Below, one piece after another: positions 1,612 to 6,035 of a stretch of 6,035 nt of DNA. The DNA is taken from the IMG/VR virus record IMGVR_UViG_3300020030_000019, positions 1 through 6,035 of that record. The stretch is one strand, 5' to 3'. The notes beneath the pieces were generated by a model. The model did not search any database. It worked only from the letters and a program-made list of their open reading frames with translations, and had not been told where the DNA came from. This DNA comes from a virus. The position numbers and the translations under genes were made by a program. The first letter of the stretch is position 1; the number at the start of each line of letters is the position of its first letter.

Positions 1612-1812
1612 ATGGATTATTTCGATTTCAGACCTAGATTTTCTCCTATTGTTAATAGCGTTTCTTATCGCTATTCTGTTGGCGCATATCGCGGCAAAAA
1701 GCGAGTTGTTATTGCTTGGTTTGTCGACGAAAGTTCCGCGAATGACTATCTTGTTCGTTGTCGTCGCACTAACCCTTATATTAAGTTTGATTGCCTTAAA
1801 AGTCTTCTTTAA
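1612..1812 (+). CDS. Hypothetical small basic protein, 66 aa (ORF66), translationally coupled to Rep
   Basis: ATG-to-TAA ORF with very strong T3 codon bias. The stop TAA 1810-1812 overlaps the Rep ATG 1812-1814 (TAATG). It has 12 K/R against 6 D/E. Confidence 0.6.
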   Translation: MDYFDFRPRFSPIVNSVSYRYSVGAYRGKKRVVIAWFVDESSANDYLVRCRRTNPYIKFDCLKSLL

Positions 1813-2882
1813 TGGCCTGCTCTTCCCCTATATGGATACGAAATCGTCGTTATTTCGACAAGAAAAACCCTTGTCGTAATGGTTCTGATGTCGTTAAGTC
1901 TGCACTTGCCCTTCGTCCCTGGGATGTCGCCCGCCAATGGCTAATGGTCCCTTGCGGAAAGTGCGAAGATTGTTTGCGTCGTCAGCGTAATGATTGGTTC
2001 GTCCGCTTAGAGCGTGAGTTAACCTGTTGTAAGGCTAATAACCAGCAGGCTATTTTTATTACAATTACAATTGCCCCAAAGTATTATAACGAGGCGCTAC
2101 TTGATCCTTCTCGATTCATTCGTCGCTTCAATGAGCGTTTGCGACATAAGCTCGGCCATTCGTTTAAGCACGCTTTCTTTCAAGAGTTTGGCACACATCC
2201 TGAAATGGGAAATGAACCTAGATTGCACTTCCACGGCTTTCTCTTTAGTACAAACGCCCTCTATAATACTATTCGTGCTGCTGTTCGAGACCTTGGTTTT
2301 GTGTGGCTATCGAAGGCTACTCATAAGCGTGCTCGATATTGTGTTAAATATGTTACTAAACAAATTCAATTTAATCCCGAAGAGATTTCGGACAAATATG
2401 TTACTGTAGATGGAAAACTTACACCTTTGTCTTGCCTCCTCCAACATCGCCGTTATACGCGAAAATTCGTATCTGCTGGCGTTGGTGATTTTCTTGGTTA
2501 TATGCCTCGCCCTTCTGCTCGTGTTTCGACGTGGTCTTATTTCGACTGTAAGAAGAATATCAATTATAACTACACGATTCCTCGATACTACCTTAGATAT
2601 CTTAAATCGGAAGACGAGGTTATGCGTTCGATTGCCGCTGCTGATGCTTATGCACATTTTAGCAAGTCTTCTCTGGTTAAGCGTATTGTGTCTTTGTGTG
2701 TTGAGCGGTTCGGTCTCAATTCCGCCGTATCCCGTAGAGCGTCGTACACGTGGGAACAAAAGCAAGTGATGCGCTTCTCTTCCTCCTCTCGGAAAATGCC
2801 TGACTTTGATCCCCCTACTTGGCTGGATTTAGATATTCTTCATTTTTGGAGAGATCATTATAAACTTCAATTAATTACTTAA
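1812..2882 (+). CDS. VP4: Replication initiation protein VP4 (HUH rolling-circle endonuclease, Microviridae type)
   Basis: 356 aa. The N-terminus is MACSSPIW...VPCGKCEDCLRRQRNDWFVR (the Cys-x2-Pro start and PCGxCxxC cluster typical of gokushovirus/alpavirus VP4). Motif 1 is FITITI (nt 2055-2072). Motif 2 is the HUH element LHFHGFLF (HFH at nt 2226-2234). Motif 3 is YCVKYVTK with two tyrosines, Y176 and Y180 (nt 2337-2360), as in the phiX174 A protein. Confidence 0.93.
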   Translation: MACSSPIWIRNRRYFDKKNPCRNGSDVVKSALALRPWDVARQWLMVPCGKCEDCLRRQRNDWFVRLERELTCCKANNQQAIFITITIAPKYYNEALLDPSRFIRRFNERLRHKLGHSFKHAFFQEFGTHPEMGNEPRLHFHGFLFSTNALYNTIRAAVRDLGFVWLSKATHKRARYCVKYVTKQIQFNPEEISDKYVTVDGKLTPLSCLLQHRRYTRKFVSAGVGDFLGYMPRPSARVSTWSYFDCKKNINYNYTIPRYYLRYLKSEDEVMRSIAAADAYAHFSKSSLVKRIVSLCVERFGLNSAVSRRASYTWEQKQVMRFSSSSRKMPDFDPPTWLDLDILHFWRDHYKLQLIT

Positions 2883-2885
2883 TTT

Positions 2886-4691
2886 ATGGGAAAACAACCT
2901 TTTATCTCACACGCTGTAAACGGTTACTCTCGTTATGATGTTCCTGAGAGTAAAGCCTTTACATGTACGCCGGGCATCTTATATCCGGTGCGAATTGATT
3001 TTATTAACGCTCGCGACCGTGTTTCTATCGAACAGGGCATCGACATTCGTAGCAATCCTCTCGCTGTTCCGACATTTAACCCTTATACTATTAGGCTTCA
3101 CCGCTTTTGGGTGCCTATGCAGCTGTATCACCCCGAAATGCGGACAAATAGCAGTAAGTTTGACATGAATAATGCCAGCTTTAATTGGATTCCCTCGCCC
3201 AATACCCCGACTGTTTCCGGCATTGATATGTTTAACAAGCGCGGCGGTTATTCCAATTCGCTTTTTAACTGGCTTCGCGTTTCTGTTACGCAGCCTTCTC
3301 GATCTCTTTCCGACGTAGAGTCTGTAAGTGTATCTATCCCTGTTGTTGGCAACTCGTCTGCTTATTTTAATGCTGATACTTATCTGGCATACTGGGATAT
3401 CGTCCGCAACTATTATGCTTACAGTCAGTGGGGTGTTTTCTCTTTTGCCTGGCCTGGAACCTCCTATATCACGGAAGATGGCTCTGGCGCCTTTGCATCG
3501 CAACCTCTTGCGACATCGTCTTTCTTTGCTCAGCGTTTTGGCAATGTTGAGTATCTTGACGCCTACTTCGAGAGCCAGTTTTACCCTTCGGCGCTCGCCT
3601 CTTCCAACGATACCTATAATCGCGCTGCTCTTTACGGTCAAATCATCAGGTCGGATATAGAAGGCACCGGTGCCGCTGGTGACGGCTTCCCCGTTATGGT
3701 TTTATCAGACTTGGCGGCGGACTTGACCCCTTATCCGGCTAATCAGTTTTCCACATCTCCCGGTACTGCTGCTGCGCCCCTAATTCGCAGTATTTTGAAG
3801 TACCATCCTATGGCTGTCGTCCCTTCAAATCCTGACCGTTTTAGTCGGCTTTTGCCCAATGGCACTTCGGATGCCGTCTCTATGACTGGTGTCTCTACTA
3901 TTCCGCAACTTGCTATTGCTTCGCGTCTACAGGAGTATAAGGACCTTCTTGGCGCTGGAGGCAGTCGTTATTCGGACTGGCTTGAAACCTTTTTTGCATC
4001 TAAGATCGAACACGTCGATCGGCCTAAACTCTTATTTAGCGCCTCGCAGACCGTTAACGTCCAGGTTATTATGAATCAGTCTGGAACTAATAACTTTCAA
4101 TCTGCAGCCGGTGGCGGCTTCCCCCTTGGCCAGCAGGGTGGTTCGATAGCGTTCAATACTCGACTTGGTCGTTCTCAGTCGTATTATTTCCGCGAGCCTG
4201 GTTATATGATTGATATGCTTAGTATTCGTCCCGTATACTATTGGGCTGGCATCAGACCCGATTATTTGACCTATCGTGGTTCTGATTATTTCAATCCCAT
4301 TTACAATGATATCGGTTACCAGGATGTCTCTACGGATGTTTTTGGCCAATCCACCACTCTTTCTTCTATAGCCAGGGAGCCGTGTTACAACGAGTTTAGA
4401 TCGTCGTATGATGAAGTGCTTGGGCAGCTTTCGGTGTTTTCCGGCCCGACTGGCGACAAACTTACACCCCTTTATTCTTATTGGGTCCAGCAGCGTTATT
4501 CTTCGGCACTTTTGAATGGAACCCCTCTCCCTGCCTCTTACGTCGCGTCTCTCCTTTTTGTCGATATGCCGCAGGTTAACTCGCCTTTCCTTTCGAACGT
4601 CGAGGATAACTTCTTTGTGAATCTCTCTTACGGCGTACGTAAGAAGAACCTTGTTAACAAAACCTTTGCAACTCGTTTGTCTAATCGCTAA
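2886..4691 (+). CDS. VP1: Major capsid protein VP1 (F-protein family jelly-roll capsid)
   Basis: 601 aa, the largest ORF, starting 3 nt after the Rep stop. Microvirus capsid signature blocks are recognisable. These include TPGILYPV...IRSNPLAVPTF...IRLHRFWVPMQLY (the FFVPxRLxW-type block), LAYWDIVRNYYAY (the AYxxIxNxYYRD-type block) and IASRLQEYKDLLGAGGSRYSDWLETFFA (the LRxAxxLQxWxExxARxGxRYxE-type block). Confidence 0.92.
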   Translation: MGKQPFISHAVNGYSRYDVPESKAFTCTPGILYPVRIDFINARDRVSIEQGIDIRSNPLAVPTFNPYTIRLHRFWVPMQLYHPEMRTNSSKFDMNNASFNWIPSPNTPTVSGIDMFNKRGGYSNSLFNWLRVSVTQPSRSLSDVESVSVSIPVVGNSSAYFNADTYLAYWDIVRNYYAYSQWGVFSFAWPGTSYITEDGSGAFASQPLATSSFFAQRFGNVEYLDAYFESQFYPSALASSNDTYNRAALYGQIIRSDIEGTGAAGDGFPVMVLSDLAADLTPYPANQFSTSPGTAAAPLIRSILKYHPMAVVPSNPDRFSRLLPNGTSDAVSMTGVSTIPQLAIASRLQEYKDLLGAGGSRYSDWLETFFASKIEHVDRPKLLFSASQTVNVQVIMNQSGTNNFQSAAGGGFPLGQQGGSIAFNTRLGRSQSYYFREPGYMIDMLSIRPVYYWAGIRPDYLTYRGSDYFNPIYNDIGYQDVSTDVFGQSTTLSSIAREPCYNEFRSSYDEVLGQLSVFSGPTGDKLTPLYSYWVQQRYSSALLNGTPLPASYVASLLFVDMPQVNSPFLSNVEDNFFVNLSYGVRKKNLVNKTFATRLSNR

Positions 4692-4703: not shown

Positions 4704-5000
4704 ATGGCACTTAATTGGTTACTTGAAGATGCCCCCGCTTATATTTCCCGCGGTCAACGAATTATGTCTGTCCTTGAAGGTTCTGGGACTGTCGACGTTT
4801 TGCCCGGTCGCCCGGATATAACAGCTGAACCTTCCGATTTTGAGAAGGGTGAAAAGTTTAATCCCGAAATCGATTTCGACCCTAATTCGTTCTCTCGTAT
4901 GGATAAGTTTGACGGTCTCGAGGTCGGACAGGAACTTATTGATTCGGAGATAGATAGATCGAAGTCCGCTTCGAAAACTCCTAATCCTGAAGAAAAATAG
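4704..5000 (+). CDS. Hypothetical acidic protein, 98 aa (ORF98); possible internal scaffolding (VP3-like) protein
   Basis: ATG-to-TAG ORF that starts 12 nt after the VP1 stop and shows T3 codon bias. It has 21 D/E against 11 K/R. Its position next to the capsid gene and its strongly acidic, probably disordered composition are the only basis for the scaffold suggestion. Confidence 0.6.
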   Translation: MALNWLLEDAPAYISRGQRIMSVLEGSGTVDVLPGRPDITAEPSDFEKGEKFNPEIDFDPNSFSRMDKFDGLEVGQELIDSEIDRSKSASKTPNPEEK

Positions 5001-5022
5001 TACATTCTTTACTTGACGATAT

Positions 5023-5325
5023 ATGCTACGTGCGCGGACCCCTTTTGCAAGAGTTCGTGAATTGCTAAAGGTTATTGGTAACGACTGCAGGAGAGGTCGC
5101 GCATTTTTCTATCGTTCTTTAAATTTTACTACCATGTCTGATACTAAACAGCCGTTTTACAAGTCAAAGGCGTTTTGGACGCTCGTCTCTTCCATTGTTG
5201 CTGCTTTAGCTGCCTTTTTTCTCGCTTCGTGTTCTGCCCAGGCTAGGATGCAGCGTAGCGGCGTTCATATCGATACTGTGCGAGTCGATTATATCATTCG
5301 TTCTAACAATTTAACCCATATGTAG
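5023..5325 (+). CDS. Small membrane protein; probable lipoprotein if translated from the internal ATG at 5134 (63 aa)
   Basis: The frame is open from ATG 5023 to TAG 5323-5325. From ATG 5134 the product is MSDTKQPFYKSK-AFWTLVSSIVAALAAFF-LASC-SAQARMQRSGVHIDTVRVDYIIRSNNLTHM. That reads as a basic n-region, a 17-aa hydrophobic core and the lipobox L-A-S-C (nt 5221-5232, Cys33), i.e. a classical signal-peptidase-II signal. The alternative start at 5023 adds a 37-aa Arg-rich N-terminus. The start is therefore uncertain. Confidence 0.6.
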   Translation: MLRARTPFARVRELLKVIGNDCRRGRAFFYRSLNFTTMSDTKQPFYKSKAFWTLVSSIVAALAAFFLASCSAQARMQRSGVHIDTVRVDYIIRSNNLTHM

Positions 5326-5326
5326 T

Positions 5327-6035
5327 ATGCCTATTCCTGTTGCCGCCGCCGCATCTTTTGGTCAAGCTCTCGGTCAGTCTGCCGCCTCTACGGGTACTAC
5401 AGGCTTGATTACTGGCGCCCTCGGTCAGCTTTTCGGAGGCATGAACGCCCGTCGCCAGTGGCGCTTTCAGCAAAAGCAAATGAAGCTTCAACAGCAGTAT
5501 GCTTTAGAGCAAATGCAGAAACAGTCGGAGCTTTCTTATGCTAATTGGCAGAAACAGTTTGACTATGAGAACGCTTATAATGACCCTTCGCAAGTTTTCA
5601 ATCGTTATCTGAAGGCTGGCGTTACTCCTGCCGCCGTTTTAGGTTCTTCGGGTGTTGGTGTTAACGCTACTATGTCAGGAGGTTCTGCTGCTATGCCTTC
5701 CGCTGCTGGTCCTTCTGGTGGCGCCTCAGTCAGCCCTGGTGCTTCGCCTGTTGCTGACCCTGTTGCTATCGCGCAGAATATGGTTGCGCAGTCAACGGTA
5801 AGCCGTAACGATGCTGCCGCTAATCGCGATAACGCTGAGGCTCAGTCGATTAATGACCAGAATGTCGGTAATCAACTTTATGTTGCTATGGCCAAGGCTC
5901 GTGTAGCCCTTGATGAGGCAGTAGCAAAACATAATCTAGCTGCCCGCGATGTTCTTAAAGTTCAGGAGGATATAGAAAAAAACAATCGATTTATTTCTGA
6001 CGCTACCCTTCTGAGTGCCATCGATGAGAAAAAAA
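5327..6035 (+). CDS. VP2: DNA pilot / minor capsid protein VP2, 5' portion (runs off the window end and continues at base 122 via the circle junction)
   Basis: ATG 5327 lies 1 nt after the stop of the preceding ORF. The frame is open to the window end, and it is absent from the ORF track only because it has no stop there. The N-terminus is MPIPVAAAASFGQALGQSAASTGTTGLITGALGQLFGG (Gly/Ala-rich and hydrophobic). Next comes the Q-rich helical stretch RRQWRFQQKQMKLQQQYALEQMQKQ, then YNDPSQVFNRYLKAGVTPAAVLG. That last block resembles the AG-L-N-P-type block I recall from gokushovirus VP2 proteins. Confidence 0.8.
   Translation, partial: MPIPVAAAASFGQALGQSAASTGTTGLITGALGQLFGGMNARRQWRFQQKQMKLQQQYALEQMQKQSELSYANWQKQFDYENAYNDPSQVFNRYLKAGVTPAAVLGSSGVGVNATMSGGSAAMPSAAGPSGGASVSPGASPVADPVAIAQNMVAQSTVSRNDAAANRDNAEAQSINDQNVGNQLYVAMAKARVALDEAVAKHNLAARDVLKVQEDIEKNNRFISDATLLSAIDEKK
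5915..6035. repeat. Terminal redundancy copy 2 (identical to 1..121)
   Basis: Exact 121/121 identity with the window start. Confidence 0.95.

Follow-up and report, generated by a model that had tools for sequence, protein, structure and literature searches.

Colicin lysis proteins, or bacteriocin release proteins (Pfam Lysis_col), are very small lipoprotein-signal precursors that give a mature lipopeptide of about 30 residues, and they are encoded beside, and co-expressed with, a cargo that leaves the cell. They are lethal permeabilisers of the envelope (PMC9517006). Release proteins act via the outer-membrane phospholipase A and produce a quasi-lysis that may not free virions. In pCloDF13, the cleaved signal peptide is reportedly stable and adds to the effect. 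Small outer-membrane lipoproteins of phages are involved in the last step of lysis as spanins, lambda Rz1 being the outer-membrane part of such a system and T1 gp11 a one-piece form. Other small phage lipoproteins, T5 Llp and the Cor-type proteins, are outer-membrane-directed, face the periplasm and are encoded beside a gene related to entry. The microviruses have small membrane-targeted proteins of their own, E and K of phiX174, and the mechanism of E is the only one for microvirus lysis that has been worked out so far (PMC3394797).

The window analysed here, a stretch of 6035 bases, is one circular microvirus genome of 5914 nt. Its terminal 121 nt are identical (1-121 vs 5915-6035), and this repeat is the assembly overlap of the circular genome. 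The features discussed below are collected in Table 1. Genes start in AT-rich sequence without Shine-Dalgarno sequences, and the nearest GenBank records are uncultured Microviridae from the faeces of pig, deer, civet, rodent, lemur, and tortoise. Few phages are more abundant in the mammalian gut than Bacteroidales microviruses. To our knowledge, the exit mechanism of microviruses is known solely in the phiX174 group and in carriers of a peptidase. A domain search of the window's genome found no peptidase or endolysin domain, in agreement with a preliminary description of this DNA, which had recognised none in the sequence.

Table 1. Features of the window, in order along the sequence (a, nucleotide positions; b, strand; c, basis or remark).
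Feature	Position	Strand	Basis or remark
Three small ORFs	5' of VP4	+	
VP4/Rep	1812-2882	+	Pfam and PHROG matches
ORF119, overprinted inside VP4, predicted two-helix membrane protein, 119 aa	2410..2769	+	
Capsid protein VP1	2886-4691	+	Pfam and PHROG matches
Acidic 98-aa ORF	4704-5000	+	
Structured non-coding hairpin, then T-run	5030..5109	+	within false 100-aa ORF from 5023
ORF63, gene for a predicted 63-aa lipoprotein precursor, stop codon included	5134..5325	+	codon-position variability, homologue clusters
Predicted signal peptide, residues 1-32: basic n-region and helix FWTLVSSIVAALAAFF	5134..5229	+	
Lipobox L-A-S-C	5221..5232, Cys33 at 5230-5232	+	
Predicted mature 31-aa lipopeptide, type A, motif G43-x-H45-x-D47-T-V	5230..5322	+	
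VP2 pilot-protein gene, 455 aa	5327..6035, onward at 122-780 across circle junction	+	

ORF63 reads from ATG 5134 to TAG 5323-5325, that is, 63 aa, and a single base separates it from the VP2 ATG at 5327. When 78 distinct related loci were aligned, variability at the three codon positions of 5134-5322 was 0.084/0.050/0.351, a periodicity which indicates that ORF63 is under strong purifying selection as a protein. Over 5023-5133, the same 78 loci gave flat values of 0.099/0.122/0.119, with no periodicity. Most gene callers picked ATG 5023, and 117 of the 120 best database homologues are 100 aa long; in several relatives, a stop codon lies between the upstream frame ('MLRAR...') and the small ORF. 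Because periodicity is absent 5' of 5134, relatives carry these stops, and the upstream sequence forms a covarying hairpin (see below), the start at ATG 5023 can be ruled out: the 100-aa call is an artefact and the gene is the 63-aa ORF. The start at 5134, which the preliminary description had preferred to 5023, is thus upheld, and its account of the sequence (the ORF, n-region, hydrophobic core, lipobox, mature length, and 1-nt gap before VP2) proved correct in every detail.

Homologues of ORF63 form 424 clusters in a database of 5.8 billion proteins, and a record cluster whose 161 members were called at 63 aa contains precisely this sequence. Together with the selection pattern, these records indicate that ORF63 is a real gene of the microvirus, that selection on it is strong, and that its translation begins at ATG 5134. 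When it was searched against Pfam, PHROGs, NCBIfam, PADLOC, and PDB sequences, nothing significant was found; the only weak matches, all below threshold, fall on lipoprotein signal regions, which is consistent with the lipoprotein reading, and those to PADLOC PDC-M02A (12 bits, E 0.03) were discarded as noise.

The block immediately upstream of ORF63 (5000-5130) is highly conserved and non-coding, with a hairpin at 5030-5104 and a T-run after it. The outer stem of the hairpin does not vary; of the 20 predicted pairs, 11 change on both sides in a compensatory manner, mostly in the inner helix. Positions 5075-5122 are near-invariant among relatives, as is the sequence TTTTTCTATCGTTCTTTA / CTATCGTTCTTTA after the hairpin and T-run, and the block is 88% conserved even where the genome flanks cease to align. 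No known RNA or tRNA was found in it, and it matched no Rfam family. Possible roles of the hairpin block are those of a terminator or attenuator ahead of ORF63-VP2 and of a single-strand origin element.

As for the protein itself, the n-region contains K5, K10, and K12 and is followed by a hydrophobic core of 17 residues (F14-L30), within an uncharged stretch from A13 to S32 whose maximum Kyte-Doolittle hydropathy over 19 residues is 2.12. The lipobox L30-A31-S32-C33 passes the PROSITE-type rule ([LVI][ASTVI][GAS]C, with the Cys at 15-35), leaving the 31-aa mature part CSAQARMQRSGVHIDTVRVDYIIRSNNLTHM, which has four K+R and two D+E, positions +2 to +6 being free of acidic residues. A lipobox match was not accepted as evidence by itself, as the same rule gives 0.62 matches per shuffled 6-kb genome and also matches one off-frame ORF in the window. 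Since the rule matches by chance at this rate, the case for ORF63 was built on comparison with its relatives.

For this comparison, 53 diverse relatives, with identity down to about 45%, were taken from a search of 1.84 billion representative proteins, and the 39 of them that could be aligned formed the alignment. The Cys is present in all 53, and the residue before it is S in 40 cases, G in 10, and A in 3. Across the 39 aligned sequences, C33, G43, H45, and D47 are invariant, and K12, W15, A24, and F29 are near-invariant. The strict PROSITE rule is passed by 28 of the 39; four type-B relatives have L-E-S-C, in which the glutamate at -2 is atypical and fails the rule. Among the 78 related loci, constraint on ORF63 is greatest in the signal helix (variability of 0.017 at the second codon position), and the mature part shows values of 0.104/0.084/0.365. 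AlphaFold2, run with a shallow alignment, gave one long helix with pLDDT of 88-91 for residues 11-30 only, the mature part being of low confidence.

Bacteroidota export lipoproteins to the cell surface by means of C-X-K-(D/E)2 or SDDDD just after the Cys (PMC5080379). Such a signal, taken as at least two acidic residues at +2 to +6, was found in none of the 53 family members (the window has S-A-Q-A-R), so a periplasm-facing product would be expected. Both the lipoprotein-type signal and the lack of a surface-export signal had been read from this one sequence in the preliminary description, and both readings hold across the family.

The arrangement of the relatives points to the Cys as a boundary. 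Signal and mature parts have been swapped independently, and whichever part was replaced, the two are joined at the Cys, as a site of cleavage and lipidation predicts. Four lineages (P0149, P0160, P0166, and L117) have an unrelated hydrophobic helix but retain the Cys, the small residue that precedes it, and the mature part. Conversely, at least three unrelated mature cassettes are found behind the standard helix, namely type A (GVHIDTVRVDY), type B (RHYVVQSASS..GDTTRTTITYEQ), and a third type in L104; types A and B both occur in genomes equally near the window by VP1 (about 67-69% identity). A constant Cys, a small residue at -1, and a junction at the Cys are together the behaviour expected of a precursor processed by signal peptidase II, although the 20-residue uncharged stretch is long enough for a stable membrane anchor and could equally be one. 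The loci that represent this variation of the mature cassette behind the standard helix are L086, L087, L090, L109-L116, and L101-L103, together with L104.

In about 25 representative clusters, the module of signal and Cys belongs to long forms of about 190 aa, located just 5' of VP4. Here the module is followed by a Ser/Thr/Pro/Leu-rich linker, a hydrophobic segment of 15-17 residues (Kyte-Doolittle value over 17 residues 1.45-2.15), and a polybasic tail with the conserved end RRGGRRGKxRPK..IPLGGSHL. This polybasic end recalls the J/VP8 DNA-binding proteins of microviruses. The linker overlaps an ORF of 118-135 aa in another frame, and the long tail was rejected as ordinary coding sequence, as its substitution pattern follows that other frame. 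The argument for a function of the tail therefore comes only from the openness of the long frame, which is kept in several divergent lineages, and from its C-terminal end, where it is better conserved than the other frame. Long forms with the module and an overprinted tail include L105 (8001-8609), L092-L097, L100, and L118.

With regard to distribution, ORF63 lies directly 5' of VP2 in every inspected relative whose VP1 is at least about 55% identical (19 GenBank genomes and 80 IMG/VR loci), which agrees with the tight linkage to VP2 proposed before. The distance from its stop to the VP2 start varied from a 17-nt overlap to a 4-nt gap in the 18 GenBank relatives in which the junction was read, and ORF63 is probably co-expressed with VP2. 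Each module-bearing locus has exactly one copy. An initial alignment of the module proved too variable for searching, but with a narrowed version one copy was detected among 185,579 genomes, in a microvirus integrated in the chromosome of Alistipes montrealensis, and no capsid relative was found among the same genomes. Since the module occurs in an Alistipes prophage and the gene starts of the window are AT-rich without Shine-Dalgarno sequences, a Bacteroidales host is likely for the family and may hold for this genome.

The Alistipes element (L105; NZ_JAGYXY010000001.1, 123486-139671) is a complete microvirus prophage. It carries the module gene, VP4, VP1, a 112-aa ORF, and VP2, and lies between host HIT/HTH genes and a FocA-like gene, an insertion context that recurs in several IMG/VR contigs; the prophage-type loci of IMG/VR share this layout. 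In Alistipes-type prophages, the module gene is at the edge of the prophage. Over 51 aa, comprising the helix and the start of the mature part, the window's module and the prophage copy (L105 8001-8200) are 76% identical, and for the same pair VP1 is 22-31% and VP4 27% identical. Such a value would mean that the module either was exchanged between distant lineages or is under extreme constraint. The sole cross-family exchange reported so far in microviruses is that of a lysis-associated peptidase (PMC9239249). Exchange between distant microvirus lineages is reported as rare, and the 76% identity of the module points to such an exchange.

A peptidase of the M15 type is carried by the only isolated Bacteroides microvirus (PMC13064476). 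M15 is otherwise common in microviruses (judging from the best 60 of 469 peptidase-bearing records), yet it was found in none of the 118 module-bearing loci; the module, in turn, was absent from all three phiHBP1-type peptidase-bearing genomes. As the peptidase side of this comparison consisted of three close phiHBP1 peptidase relatives, taken as loci, the separation of module and M15 is suggestive, with a limited sample and confounding by phylogeny.

The preliminary description had also recognised no E-like gene in the genome. This premise did not hold, as a conserved ORF with dual-coding constraint, ORF119, is overprinted inside VP4. ORF119 starts with ATG and has two strongly hydrophobic segments. 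It is free of stops in 13 of the 13 diverse relatives matching at least 70% of its length, and among 19 relatives inspected its length is, with few exceptions, about 116-125 aa; most of them have PPYP (motif PPYP(L/V)E). Variability at the third codon positions of VP4 (52 genes) falls from about 0.40 to 0.17, and the fall coincides exactly with 2410-2769, a pattern that indicates a clear dual-coding constraint. ORF119 has no family match and is unannotated, with only five called proteins in the database. Judged by its overprinted layout, it is formally the E/K-like gene of this genome, and as a lysis candidate it is at least as good as ORF63. Because ORF119 is conserved and overprinted, ORF63 is not the sole lysis candidate. 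Other overprinted hydrophobic ORFs, at 266-466, 1649-1879, 2935-3168, 3328-3660, and 5652-5801, were discarded, as none is kept open in relatives.

When set against the described systems, ORF63 shares with the colicin lysis proteins the very small lipoprotein-signal precursor, the mature lipopeptide of about 30 residues, and the place beside a cargo that leaves the cell and is probably co-expressed. It is, however, a gene of a phage, probably of Bacteroidales, and not of an enterobacterial plasmid, and no Pfam match to the Lysis_col profile was found at E up to 10, so that size and layout alone agree. ORF63 can also be likened to the spanins as a small phage lipoprotein, but its mature part has neither Pro nor any Cys after Cys33, at variance with the Rz1 type, and the protein stops 30 residues past the Cys and lacks a second hydrophobic segment, at variance with the gp11 type. 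The relatives of about 190 aa have a layout that recalls T1 gp11, with a lipobox at the N-terminal end and a hydrophobic segment, possibly a membrane helix, at the C-terminal end. Genes for a partner inner-membrane spanin, a holin, or an endolysin were not found in the genome, and ORF63 gave no PHROG match.

T5 Llp and the Cor-type proteins resemble ORF63 as small, outer-membrane-directed, periplasm-facing phage lipoproteins encoded beside an entry-related gene. They differ in that the mature part of ORF63 is half the size, the gene occurs throughout the clade, and conservation extends to the signal helix; homology to Llp, Cor, or defence families was not detected (no PHROG match, and in PADLOC only the match discarded above). 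Like E and K of phiX174, ORF63 is a small membrane-targeted microvirus protein, but it is not overprinted, has a lipobox, and shows the opposite charge layout. It has a stretch of sequence to itself between the hairpin and VP2, and it is ORF119 that fits the overprinted layout of the E type. ORF63 represents a new, unrelated family among small phage lipoproteins, in a virus family in which none has been studied.

On these grounds, we tentatively favour a role for ORF63 in the exit of the virus from the cell, with a probability of about 0.42. The precursor would be exported by Sec, Cys33 would be lipid-modified, and signal peptidase II would then cut between S32 and C33. The products would be a basic 31-residue lipopeptide facing the periplasm of a Bacteroidales host and a released, unusually conserved signal helix, to which the stable signal peptide of pCloDF13 would fit as a parallel. 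As a part of the exit machinery, ORF63 may weaken the envelope of the host, or disrupt it, at a late stage of infection, acting either alone, like the small colicin-release lipoproteins, or as an outer-membrane component alongside ORF119; in the prophage-type relatives, the module heads a protein of about 190 aa whose layout, with its hydrophobic segment and polybasic tail, resembles that of a one-piece (unimolecular) spanin. An exit role is favoured because the gene is universal in the clade, has spread between lineages as a lysis module does, and is found apart from peptidase carriers, and because of the spanin-like layout of the long forms and the match in size and layout to the colicin release lipoproteins. 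Other points count against it. A 31-aa lipopeptide cannot span the periplasm, and the release of a virion of 25-30 nm needs a breach of the cell wall, for which an action of the release-protein type may be insufficient alone. In addition, a position at the prophage edge is typical for conversion genes, and the swapping of cassettes among close relatives fits a switching of specificity, as for exclusion factors.

The last two points can be turned into an argument for superinfection exclusion or receptor masking, in which the lipopeptide would bind the inner face of an outer-membrane receptor or block the conduit of an incoming pilot protein, so that infected or lysogenic cells and debris no longer admit related microviruses, in the manner of T5 Llp or Cor. 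At least three mature cassettes have been exchanged among otherwise close genomes, the gene is at the edge of Alistipes-type prophages, it adjoins the pilot-protein gene in the window's clade, and known small phage lipoproteins include exclusion factors. We consider this rather unlikely, given that the PHROG and PADLOC searches showed no sequence relation to exclusion or defence families and that the gene is universal, not patchy, in the clade; exclusion would also leave unexplained both the extreme, sequence-specific conservation of the signal helix and the hydrophobic and polybasic C-terminal end of the long forms. That ORF63 is an accessory envelope protein related to neither exit nor exclusion, modulating for example the physiology or defence of the host envelope, with ORF119 alone as the lysis gene, seems quite improbable. 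A genome of 5.9 kb rarely keeps a non-essential gene unchanged in more than 100 genomes, and this gene has, like a lysis module, passed between distant lineages, even though nothing links ORF63 directly to lysis and the conserved, overprinted, two-helix ORF119 has the classic layout of small-phage lysis genes.

The conservation of the helix could be accounted for if ORF63 were an uncleaved signal-anchor and a single-gene lysis factor, whose helix (SSIVAALAAFF, rich in small residues) binds a membrane enzyme of envelope synthesis, by analogy with the phiX174 E helix binding MraY, the C-terminal part being largely generic. In agreement with this, the helix is the most constrained part, with the second-position variability of 0.017, and is conserved across very distant lineages, and the C-terminal part varies between types A, B, and C or a loosely constrained tail of about 130 aa. 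A plain anchor, however, needs no constant Cys with a small residue before it, several lineages in which the helix is wholly replaced keep the Cys and the mature part, and the latter is under purifying selection with its invariant G, H, and D, all of which makes such an anchor very doubtful. A single-gene lysis factor of a new type, using lipobox recognition and the conserved helix together, is a long shot: as a decoy pre-lipoprotein, ORF63 would be recognised, through its invariant lipobox, by the host machinery of lipoprotein maturation or sorting or by another membrane enzyme of envelope synthesis, and the conserved helix would then block that machinery, leading to a collapse of outer-membrane biogenesis. 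A conserved target might in that case explain the spread of the module among distant Bacteroidales microviruses. We know of no phage lysis protein with such a target.

No lipoprotein, lysis, or exclusion gene of this kind was found for microviruses in the literature searched, and the novelty that had been claimed for this virus family is confirmed to that extent. As an annotation, the lipoprotein prediction is not new, since two GenBank TPA records (DAH63314.1 and DAU60727.1) are already named 'lipoprotein'. The question of exit is now reduced to a concrete test with two short genes, ORF63 and ORF119. Should ORF63 prove lytic, no lipoprotein-type lysis factor would have been described before it for a ssDNA phage, and it might lead to a new envelope target in Bacteroidota. 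Should it be an exclusion factor, it would be the first described in this virus family, and its switchable cassettes could explain strain-level dynamics of gut phages.

Hydrophobic ORFs overprinted on VP4 were also observed in Alistipes-type prophages, at 3434-3649 in L092, 1127-1309 in L100, and 8913-9236 in L105.
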